From contig JAFGFK010000116.1 in NCBI GenBank assembly GCA_016931135.1, positions 1 through 11,464 on the forward strand: a stretch of 11,464 bases of DNA, in the 5' to 3' direction. A model generated the notes under the pieces. It was not told the DNA's origin. It ran no database searches and worked only from the letters and a program-made list of their open reading frames with translations. Positions within the stretch are counted from its first letter, which is position 1. Every line of letters begins with the position of its first letter. Of the stretch, positions 1 to 11,464 are shown piece after piece. A program made the translations under genes and the position numbers. The DNA comes from Candidatus Sumerlaeota bacterium (lineage in GTDB: Bacteria; Sumerlaeota; Sumerlaeia; MWCT01).

Positions 1-551
1 CATGGAACAAGGATATACTTATATACACACGTAAGGCTCTTTCCATTATTTCTCCCCGATTTGCAATAGTAAAGGGCAACGCGTTCGTTGCAGACGCTAT
101 CGCAACAGCAAAAATACTTAAAGATGGTGACCTTGCTTTCATTGATCCTCCATATTCGGGTGTTCAATACAGTCGTTTCTACCACGTACTTGAAACTATT
201 GCTAGAGGAGAGGCTATAGCTGTTTTTGGTACCGGAAGGTATCCTGATCGTGCATTGCGCCCACAATCCCGATTCAGTCTCAAGAGACATTCCCAAAAGG
301 AACTGTGGAATCTACTTAAAACAATTTCAGATAAGAAGATAAAAGCCATCCTTACTTTCCCCTCTCACGAATGCTCTAATGGGCTTTCTGGTACTATAAT
401 CCAGGAGATGGCTAAGGAGTTATTTGATGTAAAGGTCAATATTGTTGAAAGCAAATTCAGCACTCTTGGAGGAAATAATAAATCTGGAACTGGACGTGAA
501 GCAAAACGAATAACAAAAGAATTGATTCTAACATTATACCCTCGTTATTGA
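1..551 (+). CDS. N6-adenine DNA methyltransferase, Dam / D12 class (PF02086-like), 5'-truncated by the window edge; about the last 183 aa are present
   Basis: The reading frame is open from nt 3 to the TGA at 549-551. The listed 255..551 ORF is only its tail: the frame continues upstream with no stop. Catalytic motif IV, 'AFIDPPYS', is encoded at 135-158. The C-terminus 'FPSHECSNGLSG...ESKFSTLGGNNKSGTGREAKRITKELILTLY' aligns by eye with the E. coli Dam C-terminus ('ISNHDT...RRSISSNGGTRKKVDELLALY'). Upstream, 'FAIVKGNAFV...DGDLAFIDPPY' aligns with Dam 'FAEKAQNAFF...DASVVYCDPPY'. Confidence 0.75.
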   Translation, partial: WNKDILIYTRKALSIISPRFAIVKGNAFVADAIATAKILKDGDLAFIDPPYSGVQYSRFYHVLETIARGEAIAVFGTGRYPDRALRPQSRFSLKRHSQKELWNLLKTISDKKIKAILTFPSHECSNGLSGTIIQEMAKELFDVKVNIVESKFSTLGGNNKSGTGREAKRITKELILTLYPRY

Positions 552-618
552 TTCTATAGAATAAATTATTATTATTGTGAACAACGATTTGGGATTCTCA
601 AGTCTTTTTCCTCTCAAG

Positions 619-2418
619 TTATTGGGGAATGATTTGAGGGGAGATTTTAGCCAAAATTGATTCGAAGAAAAGATGGGGGAAGGATTTATTCGTATTCAAT
701 TTCCTTGCCATATCGAAGTAGATTTTCCTTTGTTCCGGATATGCCATTCCCAGGGCGATTAGAATGTATATCTTCTGGCGGGGCGCAAAAGTCAGGGAAC
801 AGATTTGCGTCGGATCAGGCGCCTTGATTCCTTCCAGGCAATCCGCAACCCGTCTCTCCTCCCAGATTTCTTTTCGGAGAATCTCACAAGCCTTGCCCAG
901 GTATTTCCGAGCGTCATCCTCCCTGTTCGCCTTTTTCATGGCTATATAAAGCAGGAGATAAATATTGCTGTGTTTTTCCTCCATTTTTTCCAGGGCGGCT
1001 TTCGCATCTTCCATATTTCCCCGCGTTATGGCAAGATCGAACGCTCTCTCGGGCGTGGGATTTTTATCGATCATGGCGCTCCATGTCTCCAGGTCGCCGG
1101 TTAAGTACGCCTTCTCGATATCATATATGGTTTGGACTTCCCTCCGTGCTTCTGATGGTATGAGATCATCATGCTTCACGAACCATCCGCCCAGGGCATT
1201 GTCCGCTTCCTTCACTTTTCCCTGGGTTATGAGTATAAACGATATGGATAAAATCACGGAGAGATCGTTGGGATTTTTCTTTAATTCGCCCTGATATTCT
1301 GATATCAAATCGTCATATTTCTTCGCTCCTGCGAGTATCTCGAAATAAAGGGCGCGATCTATCAGATCACACGGAAACGATTCCATCATCTTTCTCATGG
1401 TTGCAACGCTCATTTCAAATTGAGCGCTGTTCAGGTAATGCATCGCCATGGCGTAATAGCCCCTCTTTAAAGGTTTTGCGCCGCTGACGCTTTTTTGAAA
1501 CAATCCGACCGCTTCAATCTGATCCGTTACAACCCGCCCCAGAAGATACTGCAAAGCCGGATTTTCCGGATCCGCTTCCAGAAGACTCCGGTATTCCGGC
1601 TCCAGGTCGTATTGCGGCTCGTATTTTTCTTTGGCGTTCTGATACATTCTGTGCCATTCTACAAGGATGGGGCGATGACTTAATCCGGAGCTGGCCAGTT
1701 CAATATACGCCTTCCCTTCCATAGCCGTTAAAAGATACTGGAGATAACTGTCCGCATTTTCCGGATCACGCAAAAGATGCGTTTTCGCTTTTTCAATGGC
1801 GGATTCCTTCCCCATCTTCGCCTCGATCTGTTTCATCTGGATGAGGGGATGTACGCCTTCCGCCGCGGGCAGGCTTATCCTGGTTTTAGCGATGATTTTG
1901 TTATCTGGGAGCGAAACGCTCTCCGGATAAGGAATAAACGCATAATCTATTTTGGGAAGGACATAAAAATTTGAGTTGTTATAAAACTTATATTCAGTTG
2001 GCGGGGCGTCACCTGGTTTCTCCGCATAATATATCTTCTCCCACAGAAGCACAGCTGCTGTATCAGGATTCACGATAAAAAGCCTTTTGAGAAACATTCG
2101 TGTCAAAAAGGGCGTTTTGATGGTTATGGTTTGAGGCTTGATTTTCAGCTCTTCTTCCCTTATCGTGTATTCGAATCTCCCTTCTCCAACCTTGATGGCA
2201 TGATAATGGTTCGGTTGCAATGCGTATTCTTTTCCTTTTATGTTTATCTTGTATGGTTTGGAGAGCCCGTTGACAAAATAAACCACGCGGGACATTCCTA
2301 TGGAATATGAACCGTACATTAACAATCCAAGGATGAAGAGGATAATGGCGGGAGCGATAATTTTTGCAATCCCGCCTACTGTATCTTTACCTGTGATGGT
2401 TTGAGGAATCCCGATCAT
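619..2418 (-). CDS. Hypothetical single-pass membrane protein: N-terminal TM helix, beta-rich segment, then a long TPR-like alpha-helical repeat region
   Basis: 599-aa ORF. A hydrophobic helix 'IAKIIAPAIILFILGLLMY' sits near the N-terminus. The helical region contains repeated 'DPEN(A/P)..LQYLL' motifs ('LLRDPENADSYLQYLLTAMEGKAY', 'LLEADPENPALQYLLGRVVTDQ') and Ala/Tyr/Leu periodicity typical of TPR-like repeats. The start codon overlaps the stop of the upstream small ORF (TAATG). I recognise no specific family. Confidence 0.7.
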   Translation of the reverse strand: MIGIPQTITGKDTVGGIAKIIAPAIILFILGLLMYGSYSIGMSRVVYFVNGLSKPYKINIKGKEYALQPNHYHAIKVGEGRFEYTIREEELKIKPQTITIKTPFLTRMFLKRLFIVNPDTAAVLLWEKIYYAEKPGDAPPTEYKFYNNSNFYVLPKIDYAFIPYPESVSLPDNKIIAKTRISLPAAEGVHPLIQMKQIEAKMGKESAIEKAKTHLLRDPENADSYLQYLLTAMEGKAYIELASSGLSHRPILVEWHRMYQNAKEKYEPQYDLEPEYRSLLEADPENPALQYLLGRVVTDQIEAVGLFQKSVSGAKPLKRGYYAMAMHYLNSAQFEMSVATMRKMMESFPCDLIDRALYFEILAGAKKYDDLISEYQGELKKNPNDLSVILSISFILITQGKVKEADNALGGWFVKHDDLIPSEARREVQTIYDIEKAYLTGDLETWSAMIDKNPTPERAFDLAITRGNMEDAKAALEKMEEKHSNIYLLLYIAMKKANREDDARKYLGKACEILRKEIWEERRVADCLEGIKAPDPTQICSLTFAPRQKIYILIALGMAYPEQRKIYFDMARKLNTNKSFPHLFFESILAKISPQIIPQ

Positions 2419-2627
2419 TAATTGCCTGCTATGGATTTTCTTTCCGGAGGAAAGGTTCTTTTCCTTCCCAGGGGAATCAATGGGATAAAAAAGAATGTGA
2501 AATACAGCGTAGCGTCATAACTGCTCAAAAGCCCTTCTCGCATGCAATGGCTGCATTTCCCCTGATACTGGTGAATATTTCTCTTTCCGTAGCGCCACGT
2601 CCCGATTCCATTGATTCTGTATGGCAT
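2418..2627 (-). CDS. Small (69 aa) membrane protein with an N-terminal CxxC motif and a C-terminal TM helix; translationally coupled to the 599-aa TPR protein
   Basis: On the minus strand an SD-like 'AAGGGGGA' lies 6 nt upstream of the ATG (plus-strand 2625-2627). An in-frame stop lies 18 nt upstream of that ATG, so the ORF is bounded. 'GKCSHC' is followed by the hydrophobic 'LYFTFFFIPLIPL'. The stop overlaps the next start by 1 nt (TAATG at 2416-2420). Confidence 0.5.
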   Translation of the reverse strand: MPYRINGIGTWRYGKRNIHQYQGKCSHCMREGLLSSYDATLYFTFFFIPLIPLGRKRTFPPERKSIAGN

Positions 2628-2817
2628 TGGATTCCCCCTTTTATTTCATTCCACTGAGATTGAATTGCGTACCTGAAACGAAATCATCTCATAGCGAAAA
2701 TCTGAAGGAAAGATCAAGACATAAATTTCTCTTGCCGATCCATCATGAACAATGCTTGAGTTCTTTTCAATATTTGCCAAACTCCTGTATTTGATTGATA
2801 AGGCGCATGGATAATTC
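2628..2817. promoter_or_regulatory. Divergent intergenic region; presumed promoters for the minus-strand 69aa/599aa operon and the plus-strand flippase
   Basis: A 190-bp non-coding gap between divergently oriented start codons. I cannot confidently call a sigma-70-like -35/-10 pair. Confidence 0.3.
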
Positions 2818-4110
2818 ATGGGAATCGCTCGAAAAAGCCTGATCGATTATTTTTCCCAGAACGTCGGCATGGTCGTCACCTTTGTCGCCGGCATCCTTTT
2901 ATATAAATTCCTGGGACCTAAACTTGCCGGAGAATATAACCTTGTCCTTCTCGCCAATCTCTTGCTTGTCCTTTTTACTAACCTCGGGGTGGAAATTTCC
3001 ACTCGAGTGTTCACCGGCAAAGATCCGCAGAAAACCGCTCAAATCCATTCTGCATCCGCGCTCCTGATAATCGTCATTTCCCTGGTTGTCGCCATTGCCC
3101 TTTACTTTTCGCACGATGTTCTTCACCATTACTATTTTAACGATGTGAACAAAAAATATCTGCTCATTGCCGCGCTTCTCCTTCCCTTTTCTCTTTATCA
3201 GATCGTGTGGCAGGGGATCATGGTAGGGTTGGGAGAGATCGCGGTTTATTCCCGCGTTTACATGTGGAACCGGATCGCCCAGGGCGCAGTGGTCATCATA
3301 CTTATTGCATTTACATATCCAACTCTCCAAACGTTGATTTATGTCTGGGCGATACTTCAAGCCGCCACTTTTCTGGTTTCCTTCATCTATATGGTCTCGA
3401 AATACAGGCTGTTCGCCCCGTTTCCCCTGAGCCTGATCAATGATATGTTGAAATTCGGCTGGGTTGTGTTTTGGGGTAATTTCGCCTCGAATCTCATCTA
3501 TAAATATAATTTCCTGATCATATCCAACCTGCTTGGCGCTGAAGGAGTAGGGCTTTACAGCCGCGCCTCCACATTCTCCGATAAGATCACCCTGATTTCC
3601 GGTTCCCTCGAACGCGCCACTTATCAGCCCGCCTCTTCAGCGGATAAAGATTACGCCCCGTTTCTCATTCAAAAGGTCTTTCGATACAATCTTTATGTCA
3701 ATATCCTCGGCGCCCTGTTAATGTATATCCTGGGAAGCGCTTGCATACATATCTTTCTCGAGGAATATCTCGCCAGCCTTTTCCCGTTGATTTTCCTGTT
3801 ATTATCCGTTGTTTTCATGAGCTGCAGCCGTATTCTCGCCGTTTATTTCACGGCTCACCTGCAAAAACCATTGATACCCGGAATCATCAACTGGGCAATC
3901 CTCCCGATCAGTCTGGCTTTATGTTACATACTCACAAAGTATTGGGATTTGAAAGGCGCCGCAATCGCCATTGCCCTGATATATTTTCTCCACGCCCTCA
4001 TTTTTCTGATTGTCTTCATTATAAGAACGCCGGGATTGAAGATTCCTGATTTCTTTATATTTAAAATAGAAGATATAAGGAATATCAAGGGTCTTTTTTT
4101 AGGGGGTTGA
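2818..4110 (+). CDS. Wzx-like oligosaccharide/polysaccharide flippase (MOP superfamily, PST / Polysacc_synt family)
   Basis: 430-aa polytopic membrane protein with roughly 12 hydrophobic segments. The N-terminal 'LGPKLAGEYNLVLLANLLLVLFTNLGVEISTRVF' fits the PST-family signature ('lg.eeyGly.l...i......lgl'). The mid-protein 'LKFGWVVFWGNFASNLIYKYNFLIISNLLGAEGVGLYSRAS' is typical of Wzx-type flippases. Confidence 0.8.
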   Translation: MGIARKSLIDYFSQNVGMVVTFVAGILLYKFLGPKLAGEYNLVLLANLLLVLFTNLGVEISTRVFTGKDPQKTAQIHSASALLIIVISLVVAIALYFSHDVLHHYYFNDVNKKYLLIAALLLPFSLYQIVWQGIMVGLGEIAVYSRVYMWNRIAQGAVVIILIAFTYPTLQTLIYVWAILQAATFLVSFIYMVSKYRLFAPFPLSLINDMLKFGWVVFWGNFASNLIYKYNFLIISNLLGAEGVGLYSRASTFSDKITLISGSLERATYQPASSADKDYAPFLIQKVFRYNLYVNILGALLMYILGSACIHIFLEEYLASLFPLIFLLLSVVFMSCSRILAVYFTAHLQKPLIPGIINWAILPISLALCYILTKYWDLKGAAIAIALIYFLHALIFLIVFIIRTPGLKIPDFFIFKIEDIRNIKGLFLGG

Positions 4111-4497
4111 AACGTTTCAAATCAATCTTGCCGCCTTATCTTCTTTCCTCTTTAAACTTCTCTTCATCTCTCCTGTTAAATGATGTCAAAATTATTAATC
4201 TTTGATGCAAATGATTGTTAACTCATCAGCAAGTCTTTTATTTGTCTATATTATCACTGAACATAAAATATATATTATCAAAACTGAATGAAATAACAAA
4301 TATATTTTTATATGTGCATGAAAATTGCAGAGTGTTTTACTGTTTTATCTTCCCTTACAATGGGCTCTTTTTTATCGGAGTGTTTTCTTTTTAATAAATA
4401 GGGTAGGATTTAAATTTTATTATTTCTTTTAGAAGGGAGGGGAGAACTTTTTTTAATCACGCCAAATCAAAATAACGCTGAAAGGAGGGCCATGATA
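4111..4497 (+). promoter_or_regulatory. AT-rich leader/promoter region upstream of the giant secreted-protein gene; contains the GGAGG RBS at 4484-4488
   Basis: About 380 bp of strongly AT-rich non-coding sequence between two GC-richer genes. It contains a direct repeat TGATG(T)CAAA at about 4181-4190 and 4203-4211, a purine tract GGGAGGGGAG at 4435-4444, and the SD 'AAAGGAGGG' at 4481-4489. Confidence 0.35.
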
Positions 4498-4584
4498 ATG
4501 GCTTATGTCAATGCTATCAAGAAAAACGCTGTGCCATTTGGTTTTATCTTGTTTCTTTTCGCATTTTCTTTCTCAGCCATGGCA
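4498..4584 (+). other. Sec signal peptide of the giant protein (predicted cleavage after AMA)
   Basis: Basic n-region (KK), hydrophobic core 'VPFGFILFLFAFSF', and an AxA-type site 'SAMA' followed by QQ. Confidence 0.65.
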
Positions 4585-7500
4585 CAGCAATATCTGATGA
4601 CTGACTTCGAAGGATATTCTGTAGGTTCCGAGGTGATGTTCCAGGAACCCTGCTACAGCGGCTCTACAACAGGCGTCGATACGGCAACCGATATCGCCGG
4701 AGTCAGCGACGCCCAGGCGAATGATATCCTCGATCCCGCCGCCGGAAGTCCCGGCTCCTTATCCTATCGCATTTACTGGCAATGGCTTACCCCGGGAACC
4801 GGCTTCGTAAGAAGCACCACCATCAACACGCTCAATAAAAAGAATCCCATCATCGATCTTACCAAAGGTTTGTCCATTTACGTCAAAGTGACCCAGGGCG
4901 AAGTGGATATGTCCTACTGGATTCGAGAAACCGGCGTCAGCGGCAATATCGGAGACAGCGACGGGACAACCGGGGGAATCGAACGCTGCACAAACTGGGC
5001 GCGCCTCTCCGCTTCACCCCAGTGGCAATACGTCTTCTTCGATATCCCCAATGAATCCTACCTGGGACTTACCGGCAACAGCGTACTCGATGGTCAATGG
5101 GGTACCATAGAGGCGCTGACCTTCCAGGCGGTTTCAGGTTCCCCTGTCAATACTATCGAAGTTTTCATAGACGATCTGTATCAGGGTCCCGAGCAGAATC
5201 CTGCCATTGCCACTCCAACTCCCACGCCAACTCCCGTACTGGGAGAATGGCGCGCCTTCTGGGCAGACGCCTGGCACATCGGATTCCTGAACGCTTCCCA
5301 GGTTCAAACAATGGTTCAAACCGCTTATGAACACAACTATAACGCCATTGTCATGCAGGTGAGAAAACGCGGTGACGCCTATTATTTCCCAACCCTTCCC
5401 AATGCAGAGCCCAGGGCAACCAACATCGCCGATCCCGCCTTCGATCCCCTCCAGGAAACCATCAACCAGGCTCATGCCCTGGGAATAGAAGTCCATACCT
5501 GGATATGCGCCTATGTCGTTGGCTCCTCCGGCGGCTCCGCTGATCCCAATCATGTCATTAACAAACATCCGGAGTACCTTATGAAAAACAGCCTCGGGAA
5601 CACCCTCTTCGGAGAAGGATACTATCTCGATCCGGGCAATCCGGACGCCAACGCATGGAATTACAATGTCGTTATGGACCTCGTATCCAATTATGATATC
5701 GACGGGATGCATTTCGATTATATACGCTATCCTTCCGAAGACGCGGGTTACAATGATGTGGCAATTGCCCGTTATAATTCGGAATATGGACTCATCGGAC
5801 TTCCCGATTACAAAGACCCGCAATTCAAGGCATGGCGCAGAAGACAGATCACCGATTGGCTCCGCTCCACATACTCAGATATTATTGCGGTCAAACCTTA
5901 CATAAAGGTTGCCGCCTCGGTTTTCGCATCGGAATCGGACGCCGTTAACTACAGATTCCAGGATTGGCCCGCATGGATGGCGGAAGGAATCCTCGACGCC
6001 CTGTGCCCCATGAATTATTCATCGAGCAATACGACTTTCGAATCCAGGGCTCTCAACGCCAATTCCAAAAAAGGCGCACGATTCTGCTTCATGGGAAACG
6101 GCGCCTATCTCAATACCAAGGAAAATACCGTCGCTCAACTTTCTTACGCCCGTTCCATCGGTTGTGAAGGAGTTTTAACTTACAGCTATAATGTGACGAA
6201 CAACGCCGGCGACGCCAACGCCGTATTCTATGATTACATCCTTGCCAACCTGTTCCAGTATCCCGGCGTATGCCCCGACATGGCATGGAAAACATCTCCA
6301 ACAGGCGGTTACATTCGCGGTACGGTCATAAACGCCGATACGGGCGAGCCCCTCTATAACGCCGTCATCAACATTACGGAACTTGGACAATCGATCAAAA
6401 CCGATGGCGAGGGCAAATTTTCCTTTATTTACATTACACCTGGAATCTACACCCTGTCCGCTTCTCTCCCCCTTTATTTTAACGGTCAGAATGATAACAT
6501 CGGCGTATCAGCAGGCGCGGTGACAACCTGCAATTTCGCCCTTGTTCCTACCAACGAACCCACGCCCACTCCCACGCCTTCTCCCACGCCCACGCCCACG
6601 CCTTATCCGACTCCAGAACCAAACACCCAGAACCTCGTTGAAAATTTCGAAGGGCAGGTTCCCGGATCTATCGTCATGCTGAGAGAACCCGCATGGTCCG
6701 GCTCTACTTCAGGCGTCAACACTGCAACCGATGCAGCAGGCGTCAGCGCGGATCAGTCCAATGACAAACTCGATCCTGCCGTCGGTTCTCCCGGAGCCTT
6801 ATCTTATCGCCTTTATTGGGAATGGCTTGCCCCGGGAGCAGGCTCGGTACGCGATACAACCTATAACGCCCCGATCCGTCCCAATCCCAGACTCTATTTC
6901 GGCAAAGGTCTCTCCATTTATATCAAAGTGACTCAGGGCTCTGTTGACGTGTCCTACTGGCTCCGCGAAACAGGCGTTTCGGGAGAAATCGGCGGCAACG
7001 CCGGCGCCAGCGGTACGGTTGAGGAATGCGCCAGCTTCAAACGCGTCAACGCCTCTCCGGATTGGCAATACCTCTGGTGGGATATCCCCAATGAAACCTA
7101 TCGCGCCATCACAGGCAACGGACATATCGATCTCACATGGGGCGCCCTGGAATCCCTCGCCTTCAAAGCTGTTCCGGAAAGCCCCGCTACGATCATTGAA
7201 GTCTTTGTGGATGACATCTTCCAGGGGCCGGAACAAAATCCCATCATGCCAACCCCGACGCCTACTCCCACGCCCGATCCCAACGCCCAGGCTCTCGTGG
7301 ATAATTTCGAAACGGCTTCTCTCGGAACAATCTACATGTTCCGCGAACCGGCATGGTCCGGCTCCACTAAAGGCGTCAATACCGCAACCGATAAGGCTTT
7401 TGTCAGCAACCTCGAAGCGAATGATATCCTGGATCCCAACGTCGGAATCTTCGGCGTGAAATCCTACAGGTTCTTCTGGCAATGGCTTGTTCCTGGAACT

Positions 7501-8919
7501 GGTTTCGTTCGATGCACCACATATAACGCTGCAGGACGTCCCAATCCCATTCTCGATCTCTCAAAGGGTTTGTCCGTATATATCAAGGTGACCCAGGGGG
7601 AGATTGACGTCTCCTATTGGTTGAGAGAAACGGGGATCGAGGGAACTATCGGCGGAAACGGCGGCGCAAGCGGAACCATCGAGCAATGCGCCAATTTCAA
7701 ACGCATCGCCGCTTCCGATGAATGGCAATATCTGTATTGGGATATTCCGAATGAGACTTATACGAAAGTCACGGGAAATGGAATCCTCGATAAGCCATGG
7801 GGAACCCTGGAAGCCATGGTTTTCCAGGCGGTTCCAGGTTGTCCTGACGCCAATATCGAGATCTTTGTGGATGATATCTATCAGGGCGGAGAACACAGCC
7901 CCATCATCCCGACGCCTCCCCCAACGCCCACGCCAACCCCCACGCCAACTCCCACTCCGGACCTCAATTCCCAGGATCCGATCGAGACCTTCGAGAATAG
8001 AACCATCGGATCTCAAGTCATGTTGCGAGAACCGGGTTGGTCCGGCTCTTCAACCGGATTGAATAAAAACACCGACGCCGCAGGTGTATCGAACGCTGAA
8101 ACTGATAACATCCTCGATCCTGATGTGGCGGCTCCGGGAACTCAATCCTACCGAATCTACTGGGAATGGCTGGCTGCAGGTTCCGGTTTTGCCCGTTGTA
8201 CAACTTACAACGCCGCAGGACGCCGGAATCCCATCGTATATCTTCCCAAAGGACTCTCCGTCTATGTCAAGATCACCCAGGGCGAAGTCGATATCTCCTA
8301 TTGGCTCCGGGAAACCGGCGTAATGGGAGAAATCGGCGATAATGGCGGCGCCTCCGGCAAGATCGAGGAATGCACGAATTACAAACGCATCTCAGCGTGT
8401 GATGACTGGCAATATCTCCACTGGGATATTCCCAATGAGCCTTATCGCGCCATCACCGGCAACGGCGTTCTGAATGGGGAATACGGAACCATTGAGTCTC
8501 TGGTTTGCAAGGCGGTTCCTGACAGCCCGGAAACCATCATCGAGATATTCGTGGATGACCTGTATCAGGGTCCTCCGCAGAATCCCGCCATGCCCACCAT
8601 GTTCGTGAATTCCATCTTCGTGCGCCATACGAACATGAAACATGGCTTCAAGGGCGGCATGGCCATGATGGTCATCACGGATTCCCTTGGCAATCCGGTT
8701 GACGGCGCCACGGTGACCGGGACATTCTCGGGAGAGTTCAATGAAACCCTCTCCGGCGTCACGGACAGCAGGGGAGAGGTGGTGATCGACACCACCCAGA
8801 CCGACAAAGGCGGCGGAGTCATCTTCACATTCTGCGTGGATGATGTGATCAAGACATACTCGCGCATTTATGATCCTTCACAGAACCAGGAAACCTGCGA
8901 CACATATATCAGCGAGTAA
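4498..8919 (+). CDS. Giant secreted multidomain protein: signal peptide; repeat domain R1; PT linker; GHL10 (YngK-like glycoside-hydrolase-like TIM barrel); CarboxypepD_reg-like domain; PT linker; R2; PT linker; R3; PT linker; R4; Ig-like C-terminal domain
   Basis: The ORF track starts it at the ATG at 4492 (1475 aa). That ATG is only 3 nt from the GGAGG, whereas the in-frame ATG at 4498 has an ideal 9-nt spacing, so 4498 is preferred (1473 aa). The N-terminus 'MAYVNAIKKNAVPFGFILFLFAFSFSAMA|QQ' is a signal peptide. The GHL10 hallmark 'DGMHFDYIRYP' and 'AIVMQVRKRGDAYYFP...AHALGIEVHTWI' are present. Four ~205-aa paralogous domains are visible. Pro/Thr linkers ('TPTPTPTP') separate the domains. 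Stop TAA at 8917-8919. Confidence 0.9.
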   Translation: MAYVNAIKKNAVPFGFILFLFAFSFSAMAQQYLMTDFEGYSVGSEVMFQEPCYSGSTTGVDTATDIAGVSDAQANDILDPAAGSPGSLSYRIYWQWLTPGTGFVRSTTINTLNKKNPIIDLTKGLSIYVKVTQGEVDMSYWIRETGVSGNIGDSDGTTGGIERCTNWARLSASPQWQYVFFDIPNESYLGLTGNSVLDGQWGTIEALTFQAVSGSPVNTIEVFIDDLYQGPEQNPAIATPTPTPTPVLGEWRAFWADAWHIGFLNASQVQTMVQTAYEHNYNAIVMQVRKRGDAYYFPTLPNAEPRATNIADPAFDPLQETINQAHALGIEVHTWICAYVVGSSGGSADPNHVINKHPEYLMKNSLGNTLFGEGYYLDPGNPDANAWNYNVVMDLVSNYDIDGMHFDYIRYPSEDAGYNDVAIARYNSEYGLIGLPDYKDPQFKAWRRRQITDWLRSTYSDIIAVKPYIKVAASVFASESDAVNYRFQDWPAWMAEGILDALCPMNYSSSNTTFESRALNANSKKGARFCFMGNGAYLNTKENTVAQLSYARSIGCEGVLTYSYNVTNNAGDANAVFYDYILANLFQYPGVCPDMAWKTSPTGGYIRGTVINADTGEPLYNAVINITELGQSIKTDGEGKFSFIYITPGIYTLSASLPLYFNGQNDNIGVSAGAVTTCNFALVPTNEPTPTPTPSPTPTPTPYPTPEPNTQNLVENFEGQVPGSIVMLREPAWSGSTSGVNTATDAAGVSADQSNDKLDPAVGSPGALSYRLYWEWLAPGAGSVRDTTYNAPIRPNPRLYFGKGLSIYIKVTQGSVDVSYWLRETGVSGEIGGNAGASGTVEECASFKRVNASPDWQYLWWDIPNETYRAITGNGHIDLTWGALESLAFKAVPESPATIIEVFVDDIFQGPEQNPIMPTPTPTPTPDPNAQALVDNFETASLGTIYMFREPAWSGSTKGVNTATDKAFVSNLEANDILDPNVGIFGVKSYRFFWQWLVPGTGFVRCTTYNAAGRPNPILDLSKGLSVYIKVTQGEIDVSYWLRETGIEGTIGGNGGASGTIEQCANFKRIAASDEWQYLYWDIPNETYTKVTGNGILDKPWGTLEAMVFQAVPGCPDANIEIFVDDIYQGGEHSPIIPTPPPTPTPTPTPTPTPDLNSQDPIETFENRTIGSQVMLREPGWSGSSTGLNKNTDAAGVSNAETDNILDPDVAAPGTQSYRIYWEWLAAGSGFARCTTYNAAGRRNPIVYLPKGLSVYVKITQGEVDISYWLRETGVMGEIGDNGGASGKIEECTNYKRISACDDWQYLHWDIPNEPYRAITGNGVLNGEYGTIESLVCKAVPDSPETIIEIFVDDLYQGPPQNPAMPTMFVNSIFVRHTNMKHGFKGGMAMMVITDSLGNPVDGATVTGTFSGEFNETLSGVTDSRGEVVIDTTQTDKGGGVIFTFCVDDVIKTYSRIYDPSQNQETCDTYISE
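4588..5202 (+). repeat. Protein-level repeat R1 (aa 33-237) of an unassigned ~205-aa beta-domain (candidate carbohydrate-binding module)
   Basis: Shares these motifs with R2-R4: 'FQEPCYSGSTTGVDTATDIAGVS', 'SYRIYWQWLTPGTGFVR', 'KGLSIYVKVTQGEVDMSYWIRETGVSG', 'WQYVFFDIPNESY', 'IEVFIDDLYQGPEQNP'. Confidence 0.8.
5203..5235 (+). repeat. Pro/Thr linker 1 (AIATPTPTPTP); coding microsatellite-like (ACNCCN)n
   Basis: The sequence 'gccactccaactcccacgccaactccc' is in frame with the CDS. Confidence 0.8.
5236..6291 (+). other. GHL10 / DUF187 (YngK-like) glycoside-hydrolase-like TIM-barrel domain (aa ~249-600)
   Basis: Motifs 'GEWRAFWADAWH', 'NAIVMQVRKRGDAYYFPTLP', 'DPLQETINQAHALGIEVHTWI', 'YYLDPGNPDANAWNYNVVMDLVSNYDIDGMHFDYIRYP' are present. 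Their order and spacing match my memory of the PF02638 family (e.g. the 'DG.HfDDYfYP' signature). Confidence 0.65.
6298..6546 (+). other. CarboxypepD_reg-like beta-sandwich domain (aa ~603-685)
   Basis: 'GYIRGTVINADTGEPLYNAVINITELGQSIKTDGEGKFSFIYITPGIYTLSAS' fits the G.V.D..G.PL..A.V.......TD..G.F.F....G.Y.L pattern of PF13620 / PF13715. Confidence 0.55.
6547..6621 (+). repeat. Pro/Thr linker 2 (PTNEPTPTPTPSPTPTPTPYPTPEP)
   Basis: In-frame (CCCACGCCN)n-like low-complexity DNA. Confidence 0.8.
6622..7242 (+). repeat. Protein-level repeat R2 (aa 711-917)
   Basis: 'MLREPAWSGSTSGVNTATDAAGVS', 'SYRLYWEWLAPGAGSVR', 'KGLSIYIKVTQGSVDVSYWLRETGVSG', 'WQYLWWDIPNETY', 'IEVFVDDIFQGPEQNP'. Confidence 0.8.
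7243..7281 (+). repeat. Pro/Thr linker 3 (IMPTPTPTPTPDP)
   Basis: In-frame PT low-complexity coding repeat. Confidence 0.8.
7282..7902 (+). repeat. Protein-level repeat R3 (aa 931-1137)
   Basis: 'MFREPAWSGSTKGVNTATDKAFVS', 'SYRFFWQWLVPGTGFVRCTT', 'KGLSVYIKVTQGEIDVSYWLRETGIEG', 'EQCANFKR', 'WQYLYWDIPNETY', 'IEIFVDDIYQGGEHSP'. Locally about 80% nucleotide identity to R2 around the REPAWSGST segment. Confidence 0.8.
7903..7962 (+). repeat. Pro/Thr linker 4 (IIPTPPPTPTPTPTPTPTPD)
   Basis: In-frame PT low-complexity coding repeat; the longest uninterrupted TP run in the gene. Confidence 0.8.
7963..8586 (+). repeat. Protein-level repeat R4 (aa 1158-1365)
   Basis: 'MLREPGWSGSSTGLNKNTDAAGVS', 'SYRIYWEWLAAGSGFARCTT', 'KGLSVYVKITQGEVDISYWLRETGVMG', 'EECTNYKR', 'WQYLHWDIPNEPY', 'IEIFVDDLYQGPPQNP'. 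Confidence 0.8.
8587..8916 (+). other. C-terminal ~110-aa domain of the giant protein, possibly bacterial Ig-like (Big_1-like); no recognisable sorting signal
   Basis: 'SLGNPVDGATVTGTFSGEFNETLSGVTDSRGEVVIDTTQTDKGGGVIFTF' resembles the invasin/intimin Ig-like pattern (nG.pv.gatVtf......TtDanG.a.vtlts...G...vt). It lacks the T9SS CTD, PEP-CTERM, LPXTG and GPI-like features. Confidence 0.35.
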
Positions 8920-8943
8920 AATATTCTCCATGTTAAAACCTAA

Positions 8944-8978
8944 GGGGGTTCGATTTCCGGATCGAACCCCCTTTTTTT
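8944..8978 (+). terminator. Rho-independent terminator (11-bp GC-rich stem, 6-nt loop, 7-T tail) between convergent genes; likely acts in both directions
   Basis: Stem 'gggggttcgat' (8944-8954), loop 'ttccgg', stem 'atcgaaccccc' (8961-8971), then a run of seven T at 8972-8978. On the opposite strand the same hairpin is followed by TTAGGTTTTA, a weaker U tract, serving the minus-strand flotillin gene. Confidence 0.8.
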
Positions 8979-9034
8979 AAATTAGCTGACGGTGGCGCAA
9001 CTTAAACAACTTACAACTTACAACCCGCAATCCA

Positions 9035-11059
9035 CTACCCACAACCGTCATTTTTCATTTCCAGTTTTATATTTTCTGATTTTTCATTTGGTTGCGGCTC
9101 TGACGCGCCGGGTTCCTTGTTGATGTTCAGAAAATGTTTGGTCAGCATGGAAGCCAAACCGCTGAGAGAACCTGAACCGGATTCTCCGCCCATAACCAGT
9201 ATCTCCGGCACGAATTTGTTTTTCCCTTCTGAAAGCGCGTTGGCGATGTTCACCAGGGCGGTGGGGGACTTTCCCAGCGCAGCCACTTGGGCTTTGAACG
9301 CTTCCGCGCGCGCCATGCCTATGGCTCGCACCTTGGCGCCCTGGGCAGCGCCGGTCTTCTCGATGTATTGCGACTCGCCCTCCGCTTCGGAAATCCTCGC
9401 CTTCGCATTGTTCGATTTGATGGCGATCGACACCTGCGATTGCGCCAGATCCTTCTGCATATCCGCCGTGCCTTTCGACTTTTCCATGTCGATACGCTGC
9501 TGCTGCGCCTGTTCCTGCTTCTTGTACGTTTCGATCTCCTGGTTGGCGATCTCGCGTTCCGTCAGCACTGTAACAAGCGCCTGGGGAAGGATCACGTCCT
9601 GGATGTAAACACCTGGCGTCTCCACCTTATACTGCCGCAGATGTTTCCTGATGTGTTCCAAAGCCTCCATTTGAACCTGCTGCCGGGTCTCTATGAACTT
9701 GATGGCTGGCATACTCTGGAGTTTATCCCTGAAGTGGTTTCCTACAGCAGCCTGCAACACCTCGTTGACCAGGTTATGCATCGTTCCCACCATGGAGATA
9801 ACCCAGGGCGCCTCTGTATCCGCAATGTGAATCTGCACCTGGAGATCGATCGTGAATTCGAATCCTTCGCGGCTTTTCGCTATGATCGACTTCAATTGCG
9901 CATCCAGATCATGAGCGCGGGAAACCGCTTCAGCCCAGTTCAGGGTCAGGATACAGGTGGGCACAATTTCCGCTTGGTAACAGTGCGGGTTGATCGGATA
10001 TTTACCTGTTCTGAGGCATTCCTGCCAGATGCCACGGTGCCCGGGACGAACCAGCGAACCGAACTTGAACTCCGCGCCTGATGTATCCTGCGTGATAAGT
10101 CCCATATAGGATTTGATCACCGCCACCTCGCCCTGTTCCACAACCAGCATGGGAACGAGTTCCACACTCACCAGGAAAGGATTCAGGTTGTACGCGCCGT
10201 AGAGGAGCGGATCATGTTGAAGCCCGATCCTTCCGCCATTATCCAGAAACGCCTGGAAATCCTGGTAGTTGTTATGCTTGCTGTTCTTGCTTGCCAGGAT
10301 CGCCTCGATCAGGTTGTAATCGTTGACTCCCTGTTGTTTTTCCATCTTTTCGATATCGGAGAAACCGTCCAATCGGCTTGCAATATCACTGGGGGGAAGC
10401 GGATCGCCTTCGTATGTGGTGACAATCCCTATTGTGTCGACGATTCTGCCCTTGTCAGATCGTTTGATCGGTTCGATGCGAACCACGCGCAGGTCTTTGG
10501 GATTCAGTCCGAAACTGATCGGCGTCAATTTTCCTCCTTGAGATTTGGCTTTTACCTTTAAATCCTCGGAAATAGGCGCTCCATATACCCTGTCTTCCGT
10601 AATCACCAGGAAAGCCGCAGGATGGATCGGGGCAAGGGTTCCTGGAGGCAGAACCAGTCTTTGCACGCCTTTTTGTCCACCTTTTTCAAGGAAGGTTTGC
10701 AGACTGGAATAATTCCCGAACTCCTTCTTGTAGATGGCAGACTTGGCGCCTGCAGGAAGAGGTTCTCCCACCTGCGCCACAACTACTCCGATCCGGTCCG
10801 CTGAAATTTGAATCCACGGATGCTTTTCCACCTTGTAAATAATCCAAAACCGGAAGTGCCATCCGGGCATCAGGAGTTCCGCCTGGTATCCCGCTTCCCC
10901 GTTGAATGCAATCGGGTTGTCCTTCGGAAGCTTTTTCGAGGAGAAGCGCTTGATGATCAGCCCCACCTCCGTAGGTCCGATGATTCTGATGGATGGCAAT
11001 ATGAAGACCATGAATATGACGCTCGCGAAACTCAACCATCCCATGATTTGACCTTTCAT
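9035..11059 (-). CDS. Flotillin-family SPFH/band-7 membrane protein (FloT/YqiK type) with a long N-terminal extension
   Basis: 674-aa ORF. On the minus strand the SD 'AGGAGAGG' lies 7 nt upstream of the ATG. N-terminal TM 'GWLSFASVIFMVFILPSI'. A canonical SPFH core starts 'MLVVEQGEVAVIKSYMG' (aa ~316) and ends '...ETPGVYIQDVILPQ'. The C-terminal E/A/Q-rich coiled coil 'QEQAQQQRIDMEKSKG...ISEAEGESQYIEKTGAAQGAKVRAIGMARAEAFKAQVAALGK', followed by 'ILVMGGESGSGSLSGLASMLT', parallels the B. subtilis FloT C-terminus ('ITVVDTGGSGESSGANKVTSYATNLM'). Confidence 0.85.
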   Translation of the reverse strand: MKGQIMGWLSFASVIFMVFILPSIRIIGPTEVGLIIKRFSSKKLPKDNPIAFNGEAGYQAELLMPGWHFRFWIIYKVEKHPWIQISADRIGVVVAQVGEPLPAGAKSAIYKKEFGNYSSLQTFLEKGGQKGVQRLVLPPGTLAPIHPAAFLVITEDRVYGAPISEDLKVKAKSQGGKLTPISFGLNPKDLRVVRIEPIKRSDKGRIVDTIGIVTTYEGDPLPPSDIASRLDGFSDIEKMEKQQGVNDYNLIEAILASKNSKHNNYQDFQAFLDNGGRIGLQHDPLLYGAYNLNPFLVSVELVPMLVVEQGEVAVIKSYMGLITQDTSGAEFKFGSLVRPGHRGIWQECLRTGKYPINPHCYQAEIVPTCILTLNWAEAVSRAHDLDAQLKSIIAKSREGFEFTIDLQVQIHIADTEAPWVISMVGTMHNLVNEVLQAAVGNHFRDKLQSMPAIKFIETRQQVQMEALEHIRKHLRQYKVETPGVYIQDVILPQALVTVLTEREIANQEIETYKKQEQAQQQRIDMEKSKGTADMQKDLAQSQVSIAIKSNNAKARISEAEGESQYIEKTGAAQGAKVRAIGMARAEAFKAQVAALGKSPTALVNIANALSEGKNKFVPEILVMGGESGSGSLSGLASMLTKHFLNINKEPGASEPQPNEKSENIKLEMKNDGCG

Positions 11060-11233
11060 TTTTCATCCTCTCCTTTCTTGAACTTTGCTTTTATGTGAAG
11101 TTTCAGTGTTGACTTGTTATCGATTTCAAAACTATTTGTTTTCTTGTCATCTTATGGCGGGAAGGAGTTTACATCTTTTCATCAATCCTTCAACTATAAA
11201 TGACCAAAACGTTATACGTGAGGTTAGATTCTC
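11060..11233. promoter_or_regulatory. Divergent intergenic region between the flotillin gene (-) and a small secreted-protein gene (+)
   Basis: 174-bp AT-rich gap between divergent start codons. It contains 'ttgacttgttatcgatttcaaaactatttgttttc' with a TTGACT -35-like hexamer at about 11110, but I cannot identify a convincing -10. Confidence 0.3.
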
Positions 11234-11464
11234 ATGTCGCATTTTCATAACGCAAAATTTATCAGGATTCTATACTGGATTTTATCTGTAATTTTTATCG
11301 TAACGGGGATATCCGCGGATGATTCGTATGATTCCACATCGCTTTTTCACTCGTCTCCCCCCTGGATTCCCTCCGATAACAGTTCCCATCGCCACACCCT
11401 TGTATCCAGTATTTCCATGATGGAGAAAACCGTTGTGGCGAATCTCGAAGGTCCCGCCATGATC
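11234..11464 (+). CDS. N-terminal 77 aa of a hypothetical secreted/membrane-anchored protein, 3'-truncated by the window end
   Basis: The ATG at 11234 is preceded by 'GAGG' (11219-11222) with an ~11-nt spacer. The frame stays open to the window end. The translation 'MSHFHNAKFIRILYWILSVIFIVTGISADDSYDS...' has a signal-peptide / TM-anchor-like N-terminus. It is missing from the ORF track, presumably because it has no stop inside the window. Confidence 0.35.
   Translation, partial: MSHFHNAKFIRILYWILSVIFIVTGISADDSYDSTSLFHSSPPWIPSDNSSHRHTLVSSISMMEKTVVANLEGPAMI

Follow-up and report, generated by a model that had tools for sequence, protein, structure and literature searches.

Why does a single secreted bacterial protein contain four copies of the same domain arranged around one glycoside-hydrolase-like barrel, and what does that domain do? 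The question is raised by a stretch of DNA from a Candidatus Sumerlaeota bacterium (GCA_016931135.1, contig JAFGFK010000116.1, forward strand, positions 1–11,464), referred to here at its full length of 11,464 nucleotides as the window. Its largest open reading frame (ORF), at 4492–8919 on the + strand, encodes 1475 amino acids (aa) and includes four paralogous repeats of ~207 residues, R1 to R4. R1 (aa 32–237, 4585–5202) precedes a GHL10 catalytic-like domain, and R2 (aa 711–917, 6622–7242), R3 (aa 931–1137, 7282–7902), and R4 (aa 1159–1365, 7966–8586) follow it. These boundaries come from a repeat alignment. The original prediction for this DNA described four homologous domains in this order and proposed that they are a candidate new carbohydrate-binding module (CBM). 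Coordinates, sequence identities, and BLASTP comparisons agree with the first statement, and the second finds support, as far as fold and family go, in AlphaFold2, Foldseek, and profile searches. From fold and context, we consider with moderate confidence that each repeat is a non-catalytic glycan-binding module.

The fold was predicted for R2, the copy used for modeling. An AlphaFold2 model based on a 28-sequence alignment (A2, consisting of the four repeats and 24 small stand-alone homologues) had a pLDDT of 94.8 and a pTM of 0.90; the four window repeats alone gave a model with a pLDDT of 55.7, which was not used. The R2 model is a beta-sandwich of 13 beta-strands without long helices, and the closing motif IEVFVDD.YQG lies in the final beta-strand (model residues 191–202), as had been proposed. 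The best solved neighbors are carbohydrate-binding modules and the glycan-contacting jellyroll of FlaA (9cyn). Below the top match, neighbor scores were 13.4 for 1wky, 12.4 for both 6fhn and 2c4x, 11.8 for CBM11 (1v0a), and 11.6 for CBM28 (1uww), followed by CBM27, CBM22, CBM8, CBM17, CBM4, and several recently defined CBMs. A Foldseek search agrees with this CBM-dominated list, and the expectation of a beta-sandwich closest to CBMs or lectins was thus borne out. Sequence identity between R2 and its structural neighbors is 5–19%, and the BFVD viral structure library yielded only distant tail-fibre or CenC-like modules. The two-sheet topology of the model can be superimposed on that of the beta-jelly-roll CBM fold class, which supports the assignment of the repeat as a predicted CBM-like (‘galactose-binding-domain-like’) beta-jelly-roll.

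We compared the repeats with the beta-jelly-roll CBMs of families 11 (1v0a), 28 (1uww), 17 (1j83), 27 (1of3/1pmj), 22 (4xuo/1h6x), and 4 (4bj0/3p6b), and with 2c4x/2c26, the mannanase CBM in 1wky, and the xanthanase module in 6fhn. Like these modules, the repeats have acidic motifs on their N- and C-terminal strands (DFE ... DD), and they are joined in several copies via Pro/Thr (PT) linkers to a glycoside-hydrolase-like domain within a secreted protein. Many CBMs have a structural Ca2+ site, and the conserved acidic residues of the DFE (first strand) and DD (last strand) motifs are similar to it. Unlike the compared CBMs, to which they are 5–16% identical, the repeats have no Pfam or PDB hidden Markov model match, are longer (~207 residues vs the usual 130–180), and have motifs of their own, including EP.[FYW]SGST and the Gly-rich RETG..IG.NGG..G.IE. 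The repeat family also differs from CBMs in that it includes natural circular permutants and many stand-alone forms anchored by a PEP-CTERM sorting signal.

The presence of FlaA among the top structural matches is compatible with this assignment. In Leptospira, the FlaA2 jellyroll turns its concave face toward the flagellin core and its contacts are largely with O-linked glycans, so a FlaA match is no argument against glycan binding. The resemblance to FlaA1/FlaA2 (9cyn) is one of fold, at 10–13% identity, and Pfam, NCBIfam, and PDB sequence or profile searches of the repeats gave no match to FlaA. In spirochaetes, FlaA serves as a sheath subunit of a periplasmic filament, whereas the module studied here is part of surface proteins and secreted enzymes from Sumerlaeota, Planctomycetota, and Armatimonadota. 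There are no flagellar genes in the window.

The family appears to be new to the databases searched, which were Pfam-A (2025), NCBIfam (June 2026), and PDB sequences (2026). R1–R4 gave no fold-relevant Pfam-A match even at E ≤ 10 and no NCBIfam match, and did not reach the gathering thresholds of the curated CBM-like Pfam families CBM_4_9, CBM_11, CBM_6, and CBM_35_2. Matches to PDB sequences, both by single sequence and by profile, were at chance level only, with no characterized CBM among them. The 24 stand-alone homologues had no Pfam-A or NCBIfam match beyond their PEP-CTERM tails, save a few chance matches of single members. The statement that the repeats cannot be placed in a known family therefore holds across these searches. 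A sequence link to CBM_4_9 through the relative P0076 was considered and rejected, because the weak match probably lies (by eye) at aa ~810–965, in what is likely a separate C-terminal domain, outside the module at aa 341–540.

An exhaustive HMMER search with a four-repeat profile against 1.84 billion cluster representatives matched 381 proteins, each standing for a cluster at 50% identity, at E ≤ 1e-3; 185 of them passed E ≤ 1e-10 and 33 passed E ≤ 1e-30. Alignment-seeded searches added hundreds more clusters. A word-indexed homologue search with R2 alone gave no match, a limitation of the index, since the exhaustive and alignment-seeded searches gave hundreds. The homologues belong to Sumerlaeota, Planctomycetota, Armatimonadota, and Methylomirabilota, and the named source metagenome-assembled genomes (MAGs) are from Fimbriimonadaceae/Armatimonadetes, Sedimentisphaerales, Phycisphaerae, Pirellulales, other Planctomycetota, and Methylomirabilota. 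Three reference-genome loci were found, all in Candidatus Sumerlaeota/BRC1 MAGs. Source annotations of the homologues read solely ‘PEP-CTERM sorting domain-containing protein’ or ‘hypothetical protein’, the precomputed Pfam columns are empty over the protein body, and our literature search found no description of a PEP-CTERM-linked beta-sandwich CBM. Based on the profile searches, we regard the module as a real, uncurated protein family. It would be a new sequence family inside a well-known fold and functional class, in which new CBM-like families appear regularly; what sets it apart is its size, a motif set of its own, natural circular permutants, and stand-alone forms anchored by PEP-CTERM.

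Within the window protein, the four copies have a long history. Pairwise protein identity among R1–R4 is 57–65% (50–60% had been estimated by eye, and the clear homology seen then stands), with 87 invariant columns and an alignment that needs one single-residue gap; the most distant pair, R1 and R4, still gives a BLASTP E value of 6e-92. Nucleotide identity is 62–67% overall and 41–49% at third codon positions. Third positions near saturation, together with proteins that are ~60% identical, argue for old duplications whose similarity has been held by protein-level selection, and we interpret the array in this way rather than as an assembly artefact. In the Sumerlaeota locus L001, a single module copy stands ahead of GHL10; R1 is 75% identical to this copy and 74% identical to the related protein P0003, whereas the nearest relatives of R2–R4 are one another. 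We conclude that the R1 position is ancestral, R1 being the orthologous, older copy and the C-terminal triplet a later expansion.

Some of the sequence details first proposed for the repeats required revision. Among the five shared motifs, the first, third, and fifth match all four copies. The second (WL.PG.G) fails in R4, which reads WLAAGSG, and the fourth had one position too many as written; its corrected form is WQY[VL][FWYH][FW]DIPNE.Y. The string VRCTT is exact in R3 only, R4 having ARCTT. A Cys pair had been described as incomplete in R1 and R2, and one Cys is indeed missing there: Cys136 occurs in all four repeats, and Cys78 occurs in R3 and R4 only, the position being Ser in R1 and Asp in R2. 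Across 106 domain sequences, positions 78 and 136 are usually Leu (70) and Val/Ile (58), and the Cys78 plus Cys136 pair is confined to R3, R4, and the close relative P0003. The hydrophobic residues found at both positions family-wide indicate that these sites may be buried, so a lineage-specific Cys78–Cys136 disulfide in R3 and R4 is possible.

A set of polar and aromatic residues is near-invariant throughout the family, namely S26, T29, R77, N88, P89, R115, E116, E134, W148, E177, and D197, and R77, R115, E116, E134, E177, and D197 are each kept in 83–98% of the 106 domain sequences. This conservation pattern suggests a specific site, not a spacer.

Many family members consist of little more than the module. 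Among the 150 best representatives, 38 have 300 residues or fewer, and 24 of these small proteins share the domain order of the window repeats, mostly as a signal peptide, the module, and a C-terminal tail. A PEP-CTERM sorting signal was identified in 12 of the 24 (Pfam and TIGR02595). By motif, PEP-CTERM-like tails occur in 121 of 315 retrieved proteins and dockerin/EF-hand-like tails in 46. At the extreme C-terminus of a window-order subset, a different conserved tail, [DENS]-W-x-[LMI]-[YF] (E or K optional), takes the place of PEP-CTERM (15 of the 315 proteins, including P0018, P0022, P0028, P0029, P0032, P0038, P0045, P0057, P0075, P0102, P0152, and P0155). This tail could be an uncharacterized tag for sorting; alternatively, it could serve for docking, as does the Trp-ended ‘tentacle’ of FlaA2. 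It is absent from the window protein, in which Pfam and inspection of the translation also revealed no PEP-CTERM tail; the protein ends instead in a Big_1-like beta domain (...ETCDTYISE).

Other members have the two halves of the module in reverse order. In 44 of the 150 best representatives (P0050, P0065, P0084, P0095, and P0112 among them) the profile match is split, with positions ~105–200 first, followed directly by ~5–100. When the halves were swapped in twelve small split proteins, each gave a single full-length match (~5–200), with a total score that was equal or higher in all but one. Since swapping restores the full-length match, we conclude that the split members represent genuine natural circular permutation. 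The predicted break is in the hairpin between strands 96–105 and 107–116 of the R2 model (R2 residues ~103–108, nucleotides ~6928–6945). When 15 permuted members with trimmed tails were aligned and used for searching, 354 clusters were retrieved; there are hundreds of 90% clusters in the permuted form alone, and this form is the commoner one among stand-alone PEP-CTERM proteins of Planctomycetota and Armatimonadota.

The small PEP-CTERM members invite comparison with the flocculation protein PepA (Aquincola/Zoogloea), overexpression of which turns soluble exopolysaccharide into cell-bound polymer (PMC9850573). Homology was rejected: the PepA model NF033554 matched P0050 and P0065 at 39.7 and 31.6 bits vs a cut-off of 80, the matches were gone after PEP-CTERM trimming, and the window repeats had no NF033554 match. 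The likeness is therefore a functional analogy only, in that PepA is a small secreted PEP-CTERM protein with the effect expected of a surface-anchored glycan-binding module. The window protein, unlike PepA, lacks a PEP-CTERM tail. We found no conserved exosortase or exopolysaccharide neighborhood at the loci of the stand-alone proteins P0153 and P0170. In L005 (6765–8900), the P0170 gene is divergent from an adjoining gene for a PcsB-like coiled-coil protein with Peptidase_M23, an anecdotal link to peptidoglycan hydrolases.

In the window protein, the repeats accompany a clearly recognizable catalytic-like domain. The GHL10 TIM-barrel glycoside-hydrolase-like domain (aa 254–519, 5251–6048) matches PF02638 with 136.8 bits vs a cut-off of 27.9 (E 1e-39) and aligns over 259 residues to the structure of Clostridioides difficile Cwp19 (5oq2, E 3.6e-21). 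The predicted multi-copy layout around this domain, with PT linkers, was confirmed. The linkers are at aa 238–249 (5203–5238; PT stretch at aa 241–249), between R1 and GHL10; at aa 690–709 (6559–6618), ahead of R2; at aa 920–929 (7249–7278), between R2 and R3; and at aa 1140–1157 (7909–7962), between R3 and R4.

The question of whether the module always co-occurs with GHL10 has a negative answer, as most members have other partners or none. GHL10 was the partner in 5 of 41 and 2 of 8 family members in two partner-domain scans, and also in L001 and L003. Other catalytic partners are Amidase_2 in three members, Amidase_3 in P0008 and P0116, and Peptidase_M23 in P0076 and P0090; the identified catalytic partners thus belong mostly to peptidoglycan hydrolase families (GHL10, Amidase_2/3, and M23). 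Relatives also have the CBM-like domains Golvesin_C and CBM35, and golvesin was placed in a CBM6/35/36-like class in a 2022 paper (PMC9166713). Further partners in multidomain relatives are Ig, fn3, cadherin, He_PIG, and Rib repeats.

Two loci are informative about the GHL10 association. L007 (9945–16554; L008 is identical) includes two genes on the same strand, 188 bp apart. The first encodes P0004, which combines Peptidase_C39_2, Golvesin_C, the repeat module, and a C-terminal domain like that of the window protein, and the gene downstream of it encodes GHL10, CarboxypepD_reg, and Amidase_3. The GHL10–CarboxypepD_reg cassette of this second protein aligns to window aa 252–677 (E 2e-42), and its fusion to a peptidoglycan amidase suggests that the L007 cassette acts on peptidoglycan. 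L001 (121–5229) encodes a 1702-aa orthologue-like protein in which the core of module, GHL10, and CarboxypepD_reg is kept, with a single module copy. This protein has an N-terminal fn3 domain, and where the window protein has R2–R4, its C-terminal region matches an H-type lectin below the threshold (E 1e-4). The comparison with the window protein suggests that accessory binding modules are interchangeable.

The GHL10 domains fall into two motif types. The window protein (DGMHFDYIRYP, aa 404–414, 5701–5733), L001, and P0002 have HFDYIRYP, and Cwp19, L003, P0023, and P0028 have HFDDYFYP. The second Asp of HFDDYFYP in Cwp19 has been discussed as a catalytic candidate (PMC5765458); it is Tyr in the window GHL10, so the two sub-types may not share one mechanism or substrate. 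The window protein resembles Cwp19 in combining a catalytic barrel with separate wall- or substrate-targeting repeats, although these accessory repeats are CWB2 cell-wall-binding repeats in Cwp19 and the jelly-roll module here. Another presumed member of GHL10 is DigH (YddW) of Escherichia coli. DigH degrades the denuded glycan strands left by amidases (PMC12288456), and Cwp19, a GHL10 protein (PMC5765458), is a peptidoglycan lytic transglycosylase (PMC5765458; PMC6016235).

We propose that the whole protein would be a secreted, multivalent glycan-cleaving enzyme, ordered as signal peptide, R1, PT linker, GHL10, small beta domains, PT linker, R2–R3–R4 on PT linkers, and a C-terminal beta domain. 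The four modules would bind a repetitive, insoluble glycan, and four copies on flexible PT linkers could provide avidity and keep the GHL10 barrel concentrated on the polymer. The likeliest target would be the backbone of peptidoglycan, an amino-sugar polymer of similar chemistry, or else an associated exopolysaccharide. Many small PEP-CTERM-anchored members, of either circular order, have the module as their sole globular part, and there it would function as a surface-anchored lectin. Because of the partner statistics and the GHL10–amidase fusion, we tentatively suggest that the ligand could be a bacterial cell-envelope glycan, an assignment that we consider possible rather than probable.

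Several observations weigh against this proposal. The gene immediately upstream of the repeat-protein gene encodes a MOP-family (Wzx/SpoVB-like) flippase, which fits an exopolysaccharide target as well as peptidoglycan. DogH of Deinococcus radiodurans, a characterized GHL10 enzyme, acts on starch and not on peptidoglycan (PMC9967864). The genomic contexts of stand-alone members are uninformative, and most multidomain relatives have no recognized catalytic domain and are adhesin-like, with Ig, cadherin, fn3, He_PIG, or Rib domains.

The adhesin-like relatives also bear on a different explanation, in which the module is a protein–protein contact or structural jellyroll (for adhesion, a lattice, or a sheath) like the FlaA sheath proteins or MAM domains. 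The repeats would then build up a surface layer or hold the enzyme at a distance from the cell surface, without binding free polysaccharide. Consistent with such a role, many relatives are giant proteins rich in Ig, cadherin, fn3, and Rib repeats or small, enzyme-free PEP-CTERM surface proteins; FlaA, MAM, and CIA30 are among the structural neighbors; there is a partial match between an anammox S-layer protein model and the region adjoining the repeats; and the W-x-[LMI]-[YF] tail (15 of 315 proteins) recalls the FlaA2 ‘tentacle’, in which a terminal Trp docks into the neighboring subunit. However, the FlaA2 core contacts are themselves largely with glycan, CBMs heavily dominate the neighbor list, and multi-copy, PT-linked fusion to glycan- or peptidoglycan-cleaving domains is the classic substrate-targeting layout. 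The window protein, moreover, has neither a W-x-L-Y tail nor a PEP-CTERM anchor, and we consider a protein-contact or structural module unlikely.

The near-invariant Arg, Glu, and Asp residues could alternatively mean that the module is itself catalytic, in the manner of a jelly-roll glycoside hydrolase or polysaccharide lyase. The high conservation of R77, R115, E116, E134, E177, and D197 and the existence of stand-alone secreted forms are compatible with this, but four linker-joined tandem copies beside a separate catalytic TIM-barrel would be unusual for a catalytic domain, and the structural neighbors count against it. The DFE/DD acidic residues, as noted, are reminiscent of a structural Ca2+ site of CBMs. 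A catalytic module thus seems very improbable. The remaining alternative touches novelty only and is compatible with glycan binding: the module may already be catalogued, in a CAZy/dbCAN CBM family, InterPro, CATH, Gene3D, or a very recent paper, in which case the repeats would be a new member and not a new family. CBM families enter CAZy faster than Pfam, and recently defined CBMs (8qx6, 8xmz, 8zqf, and 8x8h) are among the structural neighbors of the R2 model. Set against this are the lack of single-sequence or profile matches in Pfam-A, NCBIfam, and the PDB, the hypothetical or PEP-CTERM-only annotation of the homologues, and a literature search without any description of the module; we regard prior cataloguing as quite improbable.

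The remaining parts of the protein are consistent with secretion and a modular architecture. The start codon and signal peptide (aa 1–31, 4492–4584) were read from the translation, which has a hydrophobic core and then ...FSFSAMA followed by QQ (AMA-QQ). Between GHL10 and CarboxypepD_reg is a segment of ~88 aa (aa 520–607, 6049–6312) without a Pfam match, which is 67% identical to its L001 counterpart and 31–33% identical to segments in P0093, P0103, P0120, and P0134. We read it as a further probable beta domain, small and uncurated, that accompanies this GHL10 sub-type. The CarboxypepD_reg (prealbumin-like) beta-sandwich domain (PF13620, E 1e-13) follows at aa 608–684 (6313–6543). Together with the adjoining PT linker, this region (aa 591–707, 6262–6612) matches positions 1298–1414 of NF052345, which represents the anammox S-layer glycoprotein Kustd1514 in NCBIfam, at E 7e-17, far under the whole-protein cut-off. 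The match is that of a shared module and is no evidence that the window protein is an S-layer protein.

The C-terminal domain of ~110 aa (aa 1366–1475, 8587–8916; with the stop codon, 8587–8919) shows a weak, sub-cut-off resemblance to Big_1 (PF02369, E 1e-5). P0004, itself a repeat-bearing, secreted multidomain protein, has a C-terminus that is 37% identical to this domain, and both domains have the ending ...F.FCV..V....Y.YDP..N.ETCD... This may be a lineage-specific anchoring or sorting domain.

Elsewhere in the window, genes for a TPR protein, the flippase, and an SPFH protein have no counterpart in loci L001–L003 in a synteny comparison. G+C content is ~0.41–0.47 over the TPR and flippase genes, 0.38 in the intergenic region 4111–4491, and 0.52–0.56 from the start of the large ORF onward, and the AT skew flips sign near this start (window 1–4500 vs 4500–11464). 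These shifts could reflect differing gene histories or amino-acid composition.

If glycan binding is not confirmed, the repeat would be one more uncurated beta-sandwich domain. The circular permutants are a clean natural example in a jelly-roll, with the break in one beta-hairpin, and are useful to those who engineer proteins or study how folds evolve. Confirmed binding would supply a name and a function for a family (381 representatives) that is spread widely through poorly studied phyla and whose members are now annotated only as ‘hypothetical’ or ‘PEP-CTERM sorting domain-containing protein’. It would also provide a handle on the polymer attacked by the poorly understood GHL10 enzymes of uncultured Sumerlaeota, and a first structural hypothesis for the role of small PEP-CTERM proteins at the cell surface. 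More speculatively, and with more doubt than confidence on our part, the repeats may found a new CBM family specific for bacterial cell-envelope glycans (the backbone or denuded strands of peptidoglycan, or an associated exopolysaccharide). Sumerlaeota would use it for the multivalent targeting of secreted enzymes that degrade cell walls, and Planctomycetota and Armatimonadota, in either circular order, as the functional part of small, abundant surface proteins with PEP-CTERM. If true, exosortase substrates of a large class that now lacks any assigned role would acquire a testable one, as lectins of the matrix or the cell wall.

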